Shown here piece by piece: positions 1 to 45,300 of a stretch of 55,313 bases of DNA (positions are counted from its first letter, which is position 1; each line of letters starts with the position of its first letter). The position numbers were made by a program, and so were the translations under genes. The stretch is from Asterionella formosa (taxonomy: Eukaryota), in assembly GCA_002256025.1 (NCBI GenBank), contig NKIB01013594.1, forward strand, positions 1 through 55,313, given 5' to 3'. The notes below the pieces were generated by a model. That model saw nothing but the letters and a program-made list of their open reading frames with translations. It was not told the DNA's origin and did not search any database.

Positions 1-60
1 ATGGGCAATAGTAGGCTAAAATTGACATTTATGCTAAATTTGTGGGCAGTAGGTAAGCGA

Positions 61-341
61 ATGACGCGACGATAGCTAGAGCGGGAATTGCCTCAACAAT
101 ACCCTTCTCGGCGGCTACTTGCCTTCTCGTATACATGTGTACTCTACTGGGATGGCACTCGTAGGGTGACCTTCTCGCAGCGCCGGGGGCGCCACTCGTA
201 CGGTCAACCTACTCGCGCCACCCAGCCTCGAACACATGTATACTCGCAGGCAAGAGACCACCTCGGGCTTGTATTGCCTTCAGTAATTCTTGATGAAGTT
301 CTACATAAGGCAAGAAATTAGTAGCCATCGTACGGCGACAT
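61..341 (-). ncRNA. Rod-like structured RNA element with periodic tandem G.A pairs (core hairpin 85-289, outer stem 61-78/322-341)
   Basis: Complementary arms include gtatacatgtgt 129-140/acacatgtatac 232-243, cttgcct 118-124/aggcaag 248-254, caatac 97-102/gtattg 271-276 and gtagggtgacc/ggtcaacctac. Nine exact CTCG motifs fall opposite one another. G.A and G.U pairings favour the minus strand. Confidence 0.7.
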
Positions 342-575
342 ATGTATGTGTACAGTTCTCCACCTCCAGGACATCTACGACCTAGAAAAACCCGAACAAA
401 AGATTGTCATGCTGAGCCGATGAGATTGGATACGATGGCTGGTGATGACTTTTGTTATCGCTTTCTTATTATATAGTGTAGCTAATATATGTACGTATGT
501 TCGATTATATTTCCATGAACTCTGATCTCGTGCTGGATCCTGCTCAGGGTACTTACCTTTTGAACCCTTAGCCAT
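209..575 (-). CDS. Putative 5' end of an unannotated spliced gene: exon 1 575-557 (MAKGSK), intron 556-382, 63-aa ORF ending at TAG 211-209; alternative acceptor at 16 continues out of the window
   Basis: ATG at 575, consensus donor AAG|GTAAGT at 557/556, T-rich acceptor TTTTTCTAG at 382, second acceptor AATTTTAG at 16 giving in-frame MAKGSKAYYCP. No homology recognised. Confidence 0.4.
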
Positions 576-3500
576 GACGGAACCGAGAGAAATGCTCCAA
601 GAAGAGACCTCATTTCATGATTGGTTGGCGATCGGGGAAATTGATTGCGCCCTCGCCGAGGGTCAACGAAATCCAAAGGAGGAAATCAGTCGATTGCCAC
701 TCTTTCTCCGCCTCTTGTCCGCTTCACAACCTCTGGCTGCGATTCCGGTCCTCCTTCCTAATCAGGTTTCGAGAAAACAAGAAATGTCTTCCGACCCGCT
801 ACTTGACAGTGTTGTATCCAAGCTAGAAGATGTGGCAGCAATGTACTCGGAAGCAGAGGGTATTGATGCGTTGACTGCGTGTCATGCACCGAACTTGACT
901 CGACGACTTTCGAAAGTAACACCTCTCAAGCGCAAACAAGGTGGATGGCTAACGTCGGAGTTGACTTCCACTGGTGGGCTTCAAAAGAAGCGTCGTCTTT
1001 CGAACGAAGTACACTACAACACTGCGTCTGAAAGCGACGATGACATGGTGATTGACGCTGATATCCAGACACCATTTGAGGAATTGCCGCGAGAAGCCGC
1101 TGATGCTGGTAATTCTATTCCGAATAATAATTTAATAAAAGAAATTGGAAAGTTGCATCGCAAATCAGATGCCACAATGTTGAAGGAAGACTCGCAGGAG
1201 GCGTTGGTTTCAAAAATCCTGCAGGAGTTGACTGGACTAGTTGTGGACGCTTTGAAAAACCCCGCACTCGACGACGACGGCAACCCAGTTGCACTGAAAA
1301 GTAAAGCTGACTCCATATTGGCTGAAGCTGATGCAACTGGTGTCGGGCCTACTCTTGCTGCATTGATGTATCATCTTCCTGTGCTTCGGCATGAACATGT
1401 TGCAAATTCTTTTTGCCGAACAAATTTGCCACAAGCTCCAGTATTTTTGCTCAGAATGGGGCAGAACTGCCCAGCGGCGGTACCTGCTATGATTAGAGGA
1501 TGTATCGCTGCTGTTAAGGAGTCTCCTACCACTGTGAAAACGTGTCTACGAAGTCTGGCTGGTTTGTCCAAACGAGAAGCATATCGTGTTCGATCCGCGT
1601 TGCAGAAACCAAATTTACTTGTCGACCTTCAATTGGAGATTGCACTTGATCACGATGCAGCTGGAGTGGCATGTATACTGAACCGGGAGTTGGAAGACAT
1701 GAAGGAATTTTGGGATCATGGCGATGCCACGCAAGATGTGCCAGTCCGAGTCAGTTCCGAGGGTGTTCTTAGGATGTCCGCTACTGGACGCCGGCAGTCG
1801 GCATATGCAGGAAGGCGACACTCGTCAACAAGCATTGAAATCGTTGAAGGAATGTCAAAAACTTTTGCAACCATCTTGAAGGAAAATTCTGCTCTCACCG
1901 TTCGGACGTATGAAAAGGTGTTGGACGAGGTTCAAATTGGTGGACAAGGCCGACGAATCATGTTCTTGCGAGCATTAACGTGGCTACTTTATAAAGTAGG
2001 AGGCACGTTCAATTTGAAAAAAGTTGCAACTGTTTTGAAAGAGGTTGGAAAGGATCATGGCTACTTTCCGTTGCAACTTTCCACTTCCCTGCTTCTATGT
2101 GCACGAGCGGTCGTTGCCGAGGGAATAACTGATCATGTTCGCACGTCATGTCAACGCCTGTTTTTTAACCTTATTTCTGAACGCGACATTTCATTACGAA
2201 GTAAAATTTTCGTGAGTCAAATGGCGAGTTTTATTCATTCGCATGATGTACAAGATTTGAGTTCTCTTATCGTTCACGTCATGAAAGGTAAAGAACCAGA
2301 TATGAGTGCGGAAATGGAGGTCGGTCTGAGCAAAATGTGCATTTGGACAGTTTCCAATGTAGATTTGATCAAATTTATCGAAAATGGCTTGACAGAGGAA
2401 GCGATTCTGGAGGACTCGTCAGCCTTGATGTGTGCAATATCCCGCCAGCACTTGTCAACAGTAGAAAATACAATCAAGTCAATATTTCGCTGCCCGGACA
2501 AGTGTTTCCACCTTCTCGCTCAGCTTTCTGTCATCAAATTGATACAAGAGGTAGCGGTGGTCAATCACAAGATTGGCACGATTCCTCTTGTCCTCCCAAT
2601 GGATCTAGAGAGCCTTTCCAGAAAGATTGATTTCTGTGCCAGGCCCTTAGCTCCCTGCCATGCCCAATTTTTGCTCCAATTTGCATATTGCTTGTGCATG
2701 ACCGAGAATAATCCTGATTCTCCATTCAGCGTTGAGCCAAGAGAATTCCCCGCAAATGAGGTGTTGGAGTTGTGTAAAATGAGATCAGAGTTGCTAGGTT
2801 TGAATGGCTTAGAGTGTTTTTTCCGACTTACTTTCTCCAGGATTTGTCCAGAAGTTTTGGTCGGTGTTGAGGTATACACGACAGGTCCATCACATGTAGA
2901 AGTGCCGACAAATTCGCGACATAAGATGATGTCCATGATTTCGAAATCAATAACGATGTGCGCAGAAGATTCAAATTTCGATCCATCTGGAACTGAGGCA
3001 GAGAGATTGTTTTTATCTGGAAAACGAAGGTTTCCCGCCATCGATGTCGACTCAATAGCAGTCAAAGCTCTTCTCACGACAACAAATTCACCCTCTTTAT
3101 ATCTTACGAACTCAATGTTGATCCGTGATCCCCTCGTCCTGTTCCGTTGCCCAGTGTTGGTGTGGAAGAAACAGGGCTTGCGTCGGATTATATTAGTAAT
3201 TCTCCAGCGACTTTTACAAGCGAATGCCTATGCGGTATCACATACATCACAAACCGAAGAAGTGGCTGAGGAACTCTTAGCCTCTAGAGACTCTGTGGTT
3301 ATAAGGTGTCTGCTTGTCCTGTCCAGCGGAAGGGAAGAGCGTATGAAGGCTTTGCACTGTTCTCGTGTCACAAGTATGATCCGATCGATACTATCGAAAC
3401 GCCAAGGACTCGTGACGGCTCTGGCGAAGCAAGGACATTTGACGGACTGCGCAGTTGATTTCCTCGTCGATTTCGTACCCGAGATTATCAACGATGCTGG

Positions 3501-29128: not shown

Positions 29129-29598
29129 TCCTCGTCCTGCGTGATGAACCGGAATAGACTACCCTCGGAGTACCAGGTACCTGGTACCTTATTGTTGCCA
29201 AGGACTGGAGCTATTATTTGGTAGACAACATCCAGGGATCGTCTGCAAGTTGCAGTCATTTTGCTTCAACTAAGATTTTAATCTGGGATAAAGATGGCTA
29301 AAGCTTTAGCTTCAGCATAATTACCGCAACTTGCTGGTCTTGTTGGATAGTCCAATTTCGCTCGTCAGGTTGCACTGGGAACCCTAACGCAAAGTAGGGT
29401 TCAAAAGAAACATGCATTCGCTATTTTACACGAGTTTGCATTCTCATGTGTTTAAACCATAAACAAGAATGCCAATGCTAAAAGTAGGAGTACCAGGTAA
29501 TTTAGGTGGGTATATGGTACCCAAGTAATAGAACACTAGATCTACTTATACTGATAGATTAAAGGATACACCATGGATTGCTTCCATCTACCAAACTT

Positions 29599-31869: not shown

Positions 31870-33031
31870 TGCTTCCTACGATTTTTTGAGTTCGAGGCTG
31901 GGAGATGTACCAACGATGCGAAAGCAAGTCTGGGGCTTCTTATCCCTGTTCATATATATACTTATGTTTGATGTGTGTGACGGTCTTGTCGGAGGGAGAA
32001 AATGTATTTGAACGTCAACGAGACAAACGAAGCAAAGGGGATCAATGACAGGATCTGGGTGCTTCAATCGAGCCATCGTCGTTCAATTTAGGGTACCTGG
32101 TACCTGGTACCAGGTACTCGCGCGGCTTGGCTGGCTGTTACATCGCCAAGCACCGTACCGTATTATCCAGCGCGGGAGGATTTCTTGTTGTTGGTTGTTT
32201 TCTGCCTTGGCCGTTTATGCGAAAATAGCACTACGTAAGGTACAGTAAATGTAGGTATGTACGGTACCAGTACATAGTATACAAAAGCAAGTGGCTCCTC
32301 TGCACATCGCCTGAGTTACTTCGACTCAATTACCGACTTGTTCGACTGACTTTTCCTGCAAATATTTCTCTCGCTTCTCCTCAATAGTTAATCTTTAGAT
32401 GCGTAGTTGGGGTTTTTGGTTTTGGTTCTATGTGATATGATTCATTTCCCCCCTCTATAGCTGCAGTCGAGTTTGCACTTAGCCGTGGGTGGGATGTAGG
32501 GAGGGTGAATTTTATCTATTGACTATAAATTTTTGCATGGCTTGGATTCAACGATGTTGCTTTGCTGAAAGCTGATTTGAAGAAATTTGGGCTTTCTGCC
32601 TTGAAACCCTTACATGGTTGTTTGTTGGCTGATTGACTCTTCCTTGACCTTCTCTTGCATCGTTTACTGTCATTCACTAGCCATCGAACTTCATCTTCAT
32701 TTTTTGGCTAGACACCAGAATTAGCACCCGTGGTTGCTAACTCGGCCTCCACCTCAAATTTCGCTTGCTTGTAGTTTGTTTGTTGTTCATTCCCTTGGTT
32801 TCAATGCGCGCTTCGTGCACATCCCTGTTTCCCTTTTCTATAATACTAATTCTGATCATGATGATCCCGTAAATAATTGTTTCTGTACCTAGCCTGTGTC
32901 TGCTGTTGTACGTACATATACTACAGGTAACAAGTTTAGACCTACAGGTAACAAGTTTAGACAAGTTACCAGTACCTTCCACTCAACGAAAGAATTAGCT
33001 ACCTTTATCCCAGATTAAATTGCTTATTTAA

Positions 33032-34219
33032 GGTTGCGGCCCCACAGATACACATCGTGAGGTCTGTTTTCTTCCAAAATAATTTTATTATGTACTTCAA
33101 TCTACACAGTACGTACAACTAAATAAAATAGTTAAAGGTAAAATTAGCTTTCACCAATACGACCGCTTTGCATATGCTTAGATACAGTCATTCCTTGACT
33201 TAGCTAGGGGTATGATCTATATCCAGATATGGTAAGGACCTCATTTCTGGAGAGAAGTGGCAGTTATCCCTCTTGGAATTGTAAACATCCAAAAAATAGT
33301 CAAAAAAGGGGGCCATCAAGCTTTTAAAAAATCTACGAGGGATAACTCCCACTTCTCTGCAGAAGTTAACTCCTGACGTTATAGGGTACACGGCTATCTA
33401 TTTCATTCTTCATGAAACCCCTTAGATGTAGAGCAATCCTCCTCCAAAAAGTCGACCCAATCGGCTTTTTCAACAGTCGCCAAAATATTGGAATCAGAAT
33501 TTGTACGTGCAAAAACGTTCTCGTATACTTGGAGTCTTGCATACCGGTAGGTATGTTTCGCTGAATAATTCTCAGTCCGGAAAGACTCCAGGGTAAGTTC
33601 CCGCGTCACTACACATATTCTGATTGGTTGAATTGAATTTATTCACCAGCTTCAGATCCGCTGAAGTATCCTGGTCTTGTAAAATCTCGCCAGCCACACT
33701 TGAACCACACGTATTAGATGTACTGAATCCTGGTTGGTAAAATCAGTACTGGTACTACAGGTAGTACTTCCTGTTCTTCATCATGATGAACCAATATTGT
33801 GTACTACTACCTGGTACTCCGAGTACCGAAATACCGTTACCGGTACTCTGGGACTCCGGTACTGATTCAAACACCGGTATATACCTTTGTGCGTGGAGTG
33901 ATATTGAAACTGCAGACAGCAATGAAGATTCAATATAAACGTATAAACATGAGCAATGAGCAGACATGCTGGCATACTCCTAATTTATATATTTGATTTG
34001 GCGTTGAGTAAAATTATGTCTACATTCAGCAACGAAGAAAAAGGATAAATGTTTAAATATCATGGAATTCTATCAATCTGGCGCCGATTCCTATTTATTC
34101 AAATATTCAAATGGACACTCGAATCGTGGGAATTCATTGTAGGAAACTCCCTGTTCCACGCCGTTTTTACAACCCTAGCGATATTTTCTACGAACTAGGG
34201 TTAAGCCGGGGCGGCAACC
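33032..34219. mobile_element. 1.19-kb non-autonomous Kolobok-type element
   Basis: TTAA 33028-33031 and 34220-34223 flank ggttgcggcccc / ggggcggcaacc TIRs (11/12); homologous to both ends of 8184-13724. Confidence 0.85.
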
Positions 34220-34300
34220 TTAAGCAAAATGACAGCAAATTGCTCAGGTACTCCTACCCGGTACCTGGTAGCATGCCACAGCCATAGGTACCTGGTACCA

Positions 34301-42385: not shown

Positions 42386-45300
42386 TGATTAGAAACCAAG
42401 ACCCATGACATGCAACATTTATTGACAAATGACTGGAGATACTTACTTATTGACAAGCGAATGAGATGCTCACTTATTGTAAAAGTAAGCAAGATCATTT
42501 TGACGGGATCAAGGAAAGCGAGTGTGAGAAGTCTTGTTCAGCATGACATGAGTAATCAGGCAAGAACAAGACTAGATAGACTATTAACAGAAAGCTCACA
42601 ATATTACAAAGGCACTGTAAAGTGAAAATACGTTTTCAGCTATAGATCTTAAAAGTAAGATTTGTGATATTTCAACTAGACAATTTAACATGTTTTAAAA
42701 CAAGCCTAGCTACAGGTCTAGAGACATGGTTACAGCCGATGAGAATTCAGGTGAGACAGTTTGCTTGATCATGTTTGATGGAAGCGAGACTGCTTGGCAT
42801 GAGTGGAGTATCACGACTCTTCAGCTTGCAAAATCTAAAGGTTTTAGGCTTGTGTCTGCTAAAGACACGAAGCCCATCGATGATGATGCCTATTTGGTGT
42901 ATACTGATGATGACGAGAAGAAGAAAGATGAGTTGAATGACAAAGCATATCAGTTATTGATTCTTAGTGTCAGTGGGATTGCATTTGGGATTGTGAATTC
43001 ATCCAAGACATATGATTTGATGGATGGAGACGCTTTTCTTGCTTGGCAGTATTTGGAGGATCTCTATGCTCCTCATCAAGTTACTGATTTGATTCAGCTA
43101 ACAGGCGAATTCAACGATTGTACTTTAGAGAGTACTAAAACAGACCCAGATGAATGGTTGATTGCTCTCTATAACATCAGGAGCAGAATACTTCAAATTG
43201 ATACATCATTCGAAAAGAAAGAGGTTAAAGTAATTGCGCACATGATGAACAAGTTACCTAAAGATTACAGTGAAGTCATTACTGCATTGAAGGAATGGGT
43301 ACTATTACTTTATCCCACAAACTTGAAATATGAACCAAAGGAAGTTCAAGGATGTAAATACCAACAAGATTCATTTGTCTTTAAATGGTAAGCAAATTCA
43401 AGGGACTATGCAAGAATTGTGCAAAACAAGGACACAAGGACACAAACAAGCAGCTGACTACCGATCCAAGAACAATACATGAGGCGCAAAGAAAGAAACG
43501 AAAGACAAAGGTGTGAAATCTTTCAATTGAAACAAGTATGCTGTTCACATTTCCAAGGATTTTCCTGAAGAAAAAAACGAAGGAAAAGAAAGAAACTGGA
43601 TTGTTTGTTGGTATTGTTGAAATGATCGAAATTCATGAAGGAAAGTCTAATACAGATGATGATTTTGACATAATTGACTTGACCACAAACAACAAGACGT
43701 TTTTTGACTATGAATATGTTTAAGACACCGAGGTTGTCACTACATGCAACGAAAAAGAATATGCATGTGTTGGAGTGACAATTGAAATTGTGGATGAAGA
43801 GATCAATCAAGCACACCATAAATGCATCCGAAACAGTGAGGGTAAAATTTGCGCATCAAGTGATGAAAATGAACGTTGGCTAGCAGATACAGGCGCTATC
43901 AGTCATATTACTATGTGCAATAAGCATATGACAAATGTGAAAGCAGTAAATTTACGCATTGTTTCAGGCGATGATAAAGAAGTAATTTGCAAGGAACGCG
44001 GAGATGTCTGCATGCGAAACAATCAAAATGACCGATAAGAAACTCTTGCTTGGTAAGAATGTCCTAGTATATACACCTGCCTTTCATAAAAATATTATCA
44101 GCATTGATACCTTTGTATGTGATGGTAAATACGAACTTGGTATGGAGCACAATAAAATGACTTTGACAAAAGCGGGAAAAACTGAGATGCTAGATTTCAA
44201 ACATGATCATTCAGATGTTTTGTACTATTTCCAAGGAACTCGTGAAATTTACCAAGAGGGGAGCGATATTTTATCTGCAGAGGTCATCACAACGAAATTG
44301 ACCTGTATGGACATTAATGAAGCTCACGCTAAATACAATGGACACATTGGGGAAGCAGCGTTGCGGGCTACTATGAAACCGCTTGGTATCAAAATGACAG
44401 GTATGATGTATACATGTGAAGGATGTGCACGAGCTAGTAAGGCTAAAGCAAAAAGTGTTCCTAAAGTGACTATGAGCAAGGCTACTCAACCGGGCGAACG
44501 TTTATGCACTGATATCAGCGGTCCATATAAAAAGTCGATTTCAGGAAACGACTATTGGGTCCTTGTTGTTGACGACTACACCAGAAAATCTTGGAGTTTC
44601 TTGGTTAAGAGGAAGTCACAACTTGCTTCAAAGATTGAAGATTTAATGACTAAACTCAAAACGGGTGAGTATCTTACCAAGTTTCTCCGTTGTGACATGC
44701 TTGCGGGTAAAAACATTTCAGGTTTGACAAAACTATGTGACAAATTCAATATTCCAATTGAGGTTACGGCACCCTACATGCCACAACAGAATGGAATTGT
44801 TGAGCGAAAGTTTGTATCCATTCATCAAAGAATGTTTTGCTCCAAAATTTAGTGACGAATTTCAAGGTTTACTTTGGGCAGAGGTCATCAATACCAACAC
44901 GCAAATCATGAACATTGTGGCCGCATCTAATGATATAAAAGGTGCAGATGAGAAGTTTTACAAAAAGGTTCCGATGATTTACGATCATCTAATGCATTTT
45001 GGAAGGATCGGATGGGCGAAAATTGGTGCTAAGAAGAAAAGAACTCGAAGAAAAGGCCATTAACTGTGTGATGGTTGGTTATTCTCACAATCATGCTGGA
45101 GACACTTACCGAATGTTTAACCCTCAGACAAAAAAGATTTTAAATAGTCGAAACATTCGCTGGGCTGATTGGCATACTGTTCAAACAAGTGCAATTGCAG
45201 GTTTGAGGGATTTCAATGTGGAAGAGTAGGGGACAAAGAAATAGTTGATATTACAATTGATGATGAAAAGCAGGACAAAGATGGTATTCCTGTTGTGCCA

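Follow-up and report, generated by a model that had tools for sequence, protein, structure and literature searches.

Tandem sheared G·A pairs are best known from kink-turns, box C/D motifs and SECIS cores, where they are bound by proteins of the L7Ae family. Among the satellites of centromeres, the human AATGG repeats and the Drosophila dodeca-satellite form fold-backs that G·A pairs stabilise. Imperfect palindromes, in turn, serve movement or replication in single-stranded form at the ends of IS200/IS605 elements, in the 3' hairpin of Helitrons and in the terminal hairpins of parvoviruses, which carry an asymmetric bubble. Here we describe a palindromic module close to the left end of a 55313-base stretch of diatom DNA (the window, by which we mean the whole stretch that was analysed), the minus strand of which is predicted to fold into a long rod with regularly spaced tandem G·A pairs.

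Several described systems resemble this module in part. Like kink-turns, box C/D motifs and SECIS cores, it has tandem G·A, A·G pairs between Watson-Crick pairs; however, its loops are symmetric 2x2 loops within a continuous helix, and it possesses neither C/D boxes nor an AUGA quartet. In the centromeric satellites, as here, tandem G·A pairs help to hold a hairpin of one strand which the complementary strand does not form, but the satellites are simple tandem arrays, whereas the module is a palindrome of unique sequence with G·A pairs only at phased sites. The hairpins of IS200/IS605, Helitrons and parvoviruses are alike in principle only, in that imperfections distinguish the strands for a protein; they measure 20-120 nt and have one or two irregularities, in contrast to six phased ones in a rod of 240 nt. 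Foldback elements and MITEs are, similarly to the module, short noncoding palindromes that occur in many contexts (in the case of the module, across records from mixed samples), often near genes, leave deletion derivatives and form a long hairpin as a single strand. Their arms, however, are inverted copies with random mismatches, while the module shows a single dinucleotide in the same orientation and at regular spacing, and neither a target-site duplication nor a terminal signature was found for it. Finally, viroids and the circular RNAs of retrozymes share with the module a size near 240 nt, the rod shape and abundance in RNA samples; in contrast to these, the module has DNA copies in a nuclear contig beside ordinary genes, and no ribozyme was found in it.

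The hairpin and its motif pattern

On the minus strand, window positions 85-289 are predicted to form a single long hairpin with a minimum free energy of -110.6 kcal/mol, a rod of about 100 positions per arm. Shuffled sequences reached -64.9 ± 4.1 kcal/mol on average (z -11.2) and none of 200 shuffles folded as well, which bears out the nearly continuous helix of about 100 bp that an earlier, sequence-only reading of this DNA had described here. Folding both strands, as that reading had proposed, favoured the minus strand, since the plus strand adopts the same hairpin less well (-85.5 kcal/mol, z -7.5). The apical loop region (185-189) is closed by a G+C-rich stem of positions 178-184 with 190-196. 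At the base, positions 69-84 extend the palindrome on the left; their partner is present in the metagenome contig L001 (760-776) and missing from the window copy, the right end of which is shorter.

The plus strand of the 205 nt carries the word CTCG nine times, starting at 107, 126, 158, 174, 195, 212, 227, 243 and 262, where 0.47 occurrences are expected at the window-wide rate (Poisson p 2e-9), and CGAG does not occur on this strand within positions 1-400. Mirror pairing of these words (174/195, 158/212, 126/243 and 107/262) results in four exact CGAG/CGAG loops on the minus strand, each of which reads C-G, G·A, A·G, G-C in the pairing ladder. From the apex outwards, these are 174-177 with 195-198, 158-161 with 212-215, 126-129 with 243-246, where one further G·A pair is adjacent, and 107-110 with 262-265, which lies beside a 2-nt AA bulge. 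Between the second and the third, the motif at 142-145 is CTCT in the window copy, opposite the CTCG at 227-230, and is spoiled by the single base T145; in L001 and L003 it reads CTCG, and position 145 is G in every other copy seen. The outermost pair, CTCA at 92-95 with TTCA at 279-282, is degenerate: on the minus strand its tandem G·A lies between a U·G and an A-U pair, and a bulge adjoins it. The window copy thus holds four exact motifs, one nearly exact and one weak motif, so that the six proposed from the sequence hold exactly in four cases and in reduced form at 142/227 and 92/279.

The motifs are spaced 15-19 nt apart on both arms (15, 19, 16, 16 and 16 nt on the left; 17, 15, 16, 19 and 17 nt on the right), in agreement with the figures given before. 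The stems between them lack mutual similarity and a tandem-repeat scan found no family, indicating that the hairpin is not a tandem repeat. A simple inverted duplication would face CGAG with CTCG, and the CGAG/CGAG pattern does therefore not originate from such an event; on both points the earlier interpretation was right. Apart from the hairpin, the window holds one long inverted repeat, at 33227-33382, which served as a control: its 59-nt arms are imperfect (76% complementary), its strands fold equally (-63.1 and -60.1 kcal/mol), and it is without any such motif. The hairpin structure and its motif pattern are real and non-random.

Strand preference and choice of mismatch

The minus-strand fold contains 10 G·U pairs, at the sites of which the plus strand has A·C mismatches, compared to two G·U pairs in the plus-strand fold (binomial p 0.039). 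A gap as large as the 25 kcal/mol between the strands arose in 6 of 300 palindromes for which decay was simulated (z -2.6), and with null palindromes this extreme, we rejected the energy asymmetry as strong proof of the strand. Where a paired position carries a single-site variant, the pair is retained in 7 of 15 cases on the minus and in 5 of 15 on the plus strand. With DNA parameters the gap is smaller (-47.9 vs -40.8 kcal/mol), a result which does not decide between RNA and single-stranded DNA. Taken together, the folding models modestly favour the minus strand.

Tandem G·A pairs might be expected at these sites if they were the most stable mismatch. When the eight exact motif copies were given each of the 16 possible dinucleotides at their centre and the minus strand was folded, G·A (-110.6 kcal/mol) did not surpass loops of the AG, GG or UU type (-110.9 to -112.2 kcal/mol). 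We rejected this explanation accordingly, as several tandem mismatches are equal or better in the folding model and stability does not explain the choice of G·A. Neither an inverted duplication nor random decay can yield the pattern. The same dinucleotide, in the same orientation within C...G and at regular spacing on both arms, would rather point to recognition of a shape or a word. The module may constitute a phased array of protein sites, and docking of a protein on the G·A pairs is a possible functional likeness to the kink-turn.

Copies of the module in other sequence contexts

A search pattern derived from the right arm identified three metagenome contigs (L001, L002 and L003), and together with seven open reading frame translations from protein databases and many metatranscriptome contigs these make up the copies of the module; all copies besides that of the window come from mixed samples. 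Across them, the left flanks fall into two kinds and the right flanks into at least a dozen. The window copy, L001, L002 and L003 are 96-99% alike over the module, and beyond window position 287-289, where the short form of the module ends on the right, the sequences of all four DNA copies are unlike. On the left, window positions 1-68 belong to a noncoding sequence (flank A) which is common to the window, L001 and L003 and continues in the two contigs about 470 nt further left of the window start; over 719 nt, L001 and L003 are 91.7% alike. Positions 538-776 of L001 hold a complete palindrome of 239 nt with five exact CGAG/CGAG loops, the last 17 nt of which are lacking in the window copy. 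Also in these contigs the minus strand folds better than the plus strand, with -150.3 vs -121.7 kcal/mol for L001 and -112.6 vs -90.8 kcal/mol for L003. A second copy was not found within the 55-kb window, and the pattern had no matches in viral contigs or contigs of prokaryote genomes.

The neighbouring genes differ as well. To the right of the hairpin, the window holds an INTS2-like open reading frame, a weak match with 23.6 bits that is below the Pfam cut-off of 25. In L002, which begins within the right arm, a clear tocopherol cyclase gene lies 258 nt downstream of the module. As the module lies upstream of different genes and within differing flanks, it is not a single-copy gene tied to INTS2. 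This speaks against the locus-specific RNA gene upstream of INTS2 that the sequence-only reading had suggested. Numerous dispersed copies had been named in advance as evidence against that view, and such copies were largely what was found among metagenome contigs, translations and RNA contigs.

A stop-free frame runs through the hairpin on the plus strand (window 76-321, 81 codons; 106 codons in L003), and its translation was used as the query for the protein database search. The seven translations that contain the module (P0001-P0005, P0009 and P0010) stem from separate database contigs, all are singletons without names, and none matched a Pfam family; these 'proteins' are spurious, being artefacts of gene callers on hairpin frames. 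By tblastn on L001, the left side of P0001-P0003 is the reverse complement of the right flank of L001 (flank B), followed by the hairpin in plus orientation, and in P0003 half a hairpin in opposite orientation precedes the reversed flank B. P0010 consists of flank A and a hairpin with an internal deletion, and P0005 has a partial duplication that is followed by the long-form end and flank B. P0009 likewise carries deletions, and alignments judged by reading give each of P0002, P0004, P0009 and P0010 a different right continuation.

Both flanks of L001, over positions 193-880, are rich in the word GGCAAT/ATTGCC, which occurs 12 times in 1185 nt, as opposed to 0.56 times per kb in the window. 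Such enrichment resembles the subterminal repeats of DNA transposons. The possibility that flank A is a diverged inverted copy of flank B was rejected, as local alignment scores lay within the range of shuffled sequences.

Occurrence in RNA libraries

Parts of window positions 40-340 are present in 18 sequencing runs, 13 of which are recorded as RNA; the 18 runs belong to 12 studies, which sampled estuary, lake, wetland and further freshwater sites. Contigs were examined in detail for X1, X5, X6 and X10, four of the 21 listed runs; in these, 58 contigs match window 1-2500, many of which are variants of the module. Contigs of this kind give no strand, ends or even transcription, and the summed depth, to which every organism in the sample contributes, reflects expression poorly; with this limit, the summed word depth in X6 is about 1500 per bin over the module and 6-13 at the neighbouring open reading frame. 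Position 145 is G in the entire contig depth of all four runs, and no contig is thus shown to derive from the window's own copy.

The RNA contigs do not stop at the ends of the module. They pass through it into flank A and into unlike right flanks, and at 282-289 they leave it into at least five further unlike sequences. Contig cover is absent at window 337-504 in all four runs, which says nothing for or against transcription or DNA carry-over. A single contig of X5 (window place 289) joins the right end of the long form, via a short loop-like stretch, to the start of a slightly different unit. This might represent either a tandem pair or, less likely, the junction of a circle; as the next unit is unlike the window sequence, it looks like two neighbouring DNA copies. 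A go-back joint was not listed among the contigs of the four runs.

Decay and constraint

Among the 23 variant sites listed in the RNA contigs, 13 are CpG transitions, several of them within CTCG, and internal deletions occur as well. Of the 62 motif instances that could be assessed in the seven diverged database copies, 49 still agree with CTCG and the loss of 13 is certain; this count is based on 12 alignments, 8 having been dropped as weak or as palindrome echoes. An unfiltered count of 48 of 95 was discarded, because it included weak alignments and echoes of the opposite strand. In X6, C>T changes at the motif positions 197 and 214 account for 615 out of a summed depth of 1074 and 615 out of 955, respectively, mostly due to one contig of depth 600. 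The dominance of these changes at two motifs indicates that abundance does not need intact G·A loops. Judged from the sequences, such decay by CpG changes, deletions and partial duplication is typical of repeats. The window copy itself is not depleted in CpG (observed/expected 0.96, compared to 0.76 for the whole window).

At the same time, L001 and L003 are identical in 216 of 222 hairpin columns (97%) and in 443 of 498 columns of flank A (89%; Fisher p 7.6e-5). The greater conservation of the hairpin, along with the shuffling result, agrees with the earlier proposal of a structure beyond chance and under constraint.

Comparison with known families

The best Rfam match of the module (Rfam 15) is MIR3454, which scores 20.6 bits (E 0.35) where the gathering threshold is 142, and over the module in L001-L003 there was no match at E up to 1; from the sequence, too, the hairpin had not been recognised as a known RNA family. 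No snoRNA or SECIS match to the module was obtained, and self-cleaving ribozyme families were found neither in the module (E up to 10) nor in L001-L003 (E up to 1); the contigs contain one tandem-like junction. With regard to kink-turns, the binding sites of L7Ae, 15.5K and SBP2, tandem G·A, A·G beside a Watson-Crick stem is present at the level of sequence (four exact in the window copy, five in L001). However, the 3-nt bulge directly 5' of the tandem G·A, by which kink-turns are defined, is missing from all six motifs: four form symmetric 2x2 loops, a 1-nt bulge lies close to the fifth, and the 2-nt AA bulge of the sixth is on the wrong side. Membership in the kink-turn family thus fails, and the analogy to kink-turns and L7Ae that had been drawn from the sequence does not hold.

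As in MITEs and foldback elements, the module is a short noncoding unit of two inverted arms (239 nt in L001, 205 nt in the window copy). The records of it, which come from mixed samples, show two left flanks and no fewer than a dozen right ones, and the 55-kb window holds one copy. The left flank is common to the window, L001 and L003, while the right flanks differ. By eye, no duplicated bases flank the palindrome of L001. Neither a transposase nor a reverse transcriptase was found, no open reading frame of the unit has a family match, and no HUH or Rep gene was seen. The copies lack the CTRR 3' end of Helitrons, as they end near ...AATTC or AATAC with a hairpin of 205-239 nt, and ARAGORN predicted no genes in L001-L003 that could provide the tRNA-like head of a tRNA-derived SINE. 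Scans of L001 for tandem repeats and for promoters and terminators of bacterial type gave nothing useful. No such hairpin was found in the available parts of the literature on diatom hairpin small RNAs and MITEs, tandem-GA transposons and G·A satellites, although the repeat library of PMC7466962, of which likewise a part was accessible, may list relatives.

Origin and possible role of the module

We consider it about an even call that this hairpin forms the palindromic core of a diatom repeat family which is dispersed, noncoding and probably mobile, and of which the window holds a right-truncated copy. With respect to type, the best reading is an unclassified family similar to foldback elements or MITEs, the window copy of which merely happens to adjoin an INTS2-like gene. 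The dispersal part of this reading is much firmer than the mechanism part: as neither a target-site duplication nor a transposase or reverse transcriptase was found, mobility is something we can only infer, and the same holds for the acting strand and the protein reader. The module would act as a single-stranded hairpin, either in a transcript or in a single-stranded DNA intermediate. With the same word CTCG, and not its complement, on both arms, the two strands would fold into different objects, the CGAG strand into an unbroken rod that bears tandem G·A pairs at intervals of ~1.5 helical turns and the CTCG strand into a rod with pyrimidine mismatches. Presumably, a protein of the propagation or processing machinery of the element would read this regularly spaced strand mark.

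Other explanations assign the function to an RNA. A noncoding RNA gene of the host would produce a discrete minus-strand rod in which phased G·A pairs dock an L7Ae-like or another protein, and the copies would represent a gene family. The high summed depth and the occurrence in RNA libraries of several studies, the conservation of the hairpin beyond that of its flank, the better fold of the minus strand and the lack of a match to known families are all in line with such a gene; yet there is no synteny, the flanks differ in every copy, and deleted, duplicated and CpG-decayed copies are present. In addition, the 3-nt bulge is missing from all six motifs, and the RNA contigs run past the ends of the module into flank A and unlike right flanks, all with G at 145 and none shown to come from the window's copy, and we therefore regard this gene as unlikely. 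Alternatively, read-through transcripts of a transposon-derived foldback might be diced and feed silencing, in which case the G·A pairs would be incidental or tune the dicing. The occurrence of a dispersed inverted-repeat family in RNA libraries fits, the CpG decay is consistent with methylated, silenced repeats, and diatom small RNAs have been mapped to repeats, as stated in the accessible part of PMC4247016. However, silencing asks for no particular mismatch at fixed spacing and orientation, and the perfect runs between the motifs, at only 12-15 bp, are below the length of small-RNA duplexes, which leaves this explanation unlikely. The module might further be a genome-encoded, viroid-sized rod RNA similar to retrozymes or retroviroids, circular or multimeric and recopied into DNA. 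This would suit its size of about 225-240 nt, its rod shape, the high summed depth in RNA libraries and the X5 contig in which the long-form right end is joined to the start of the next unit. That contig is a single one, though, and its next unit differs from the window, resembling two neighbouring DNA copies; moreover, no go-back joint is listed and self-cleaving ribozyme families are missing from the module (E up to 10) and from L001-L003 (E up to 1), so that a very slim chance remains for an RNA of this kind.

The two remaining explanations dispense with the hairpin as the functional form. In double-stranded DNA, ten CTCG words in one orientation at ~16-bp spacing could be read by a transposase or another factor, the hairpin being secondary. 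While all nine or ten CTCG words indeed lie on one strand over both arms, and the flanks hold another repeated word with GGCAAT, a word of 4 bp is too short for specific binding, and both the complementarity of the arms between the words and the G·U-type asymmetry would be left unexplained; we give this a slim chance. That the module represents functionless, neutral remains of an old inverted duplication was already disfavoured and appears hardly credible. The many decayed copies and the ordinary inverted repeat elsewhere in the window (33227-33382) would agree with it, but random decay cannot give the same TC/TC mismatch within C...G at five to six mirrored places, nor does neutrality fit a hairpin that is more conserved than its flank (p 7.6e-5).

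A bolder and unlikely reading may be put forward, namely that diatoms harbour a family of genome-encoded, mobile, viroid-sized rod RNAs which are marked by a sheared G·A platform of fixed orientation every ~1.5 turns and coated or measured by a dedicated protein. If this were true, it would imply both a new code of RNA-protein recognition and a new class of non-autonomous elements that is abundant in the RNA of freshwater plankton. More generally, should the phased G·A pairs be read by a protein, they would provide a natural strand-marking code in a long helix and a route to study the propagation of unclassified diatom repeats, which account for a large share of some diatom genomes, as indicated in the accessible part of PMC7466962. 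Should the design be idle, the module is a warning that a striking hairpin near a gene may be the copy of a repeat and not a local regulator. In either case, it constitutes an unannotated repeat which is present in RNA libraries and the translations of which have already entered protein databases as spurious open reading frames.

Further repeats in the window and the flanks

The window starts inside flank A, 84 nt to the left of the hairpin; if its 55313 bases are the whole contig, the assembly break would have fallen inside the repeat. In L001, the A+T-rich flank A contains a direct repeat of 44 nt (369-411 and 437-480, 91%), both copies of which end in ATGGGCAAT, and the second copy ends where the window begins. 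The junction at flank B in L001 would, with the hairpin removed, read as a GGCAA|TTGCC palindrome. In the interval that separates the hairpin from the INTS2-like open reading frame, a weak inverted repeat (28 nt, 71%) is located at window 305-332/431-458. The control repeat at 33227-33382 is an ordinary inverted repeat, MITE-like in appearance.

A second short dispersed repeat, 81-90% alike, is found directly to the right of the hairpin in L002 (164-258) and at three intergenic sites of the window (29245-29338, 32985-33032 and 34220-34271). It contains GGTACC-rich runs, which also occur at window 32092-32117 and in L003 at 747-776. Among named organisms, the nearest relatives of a window protein are in Fragilaria crotonensis (47%) and Nitzschia (42%), with closer ones at 63-67%. 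In the Protein Atlas, the matches were confined to generic clusters of eukaryotes. Finally, an open reading frame at window 42726-43391 with a match to a copia-type gag (E 1e-6) is the remnant of an LTR retrotransposon, which is unrelated in sequence to the hairpin.
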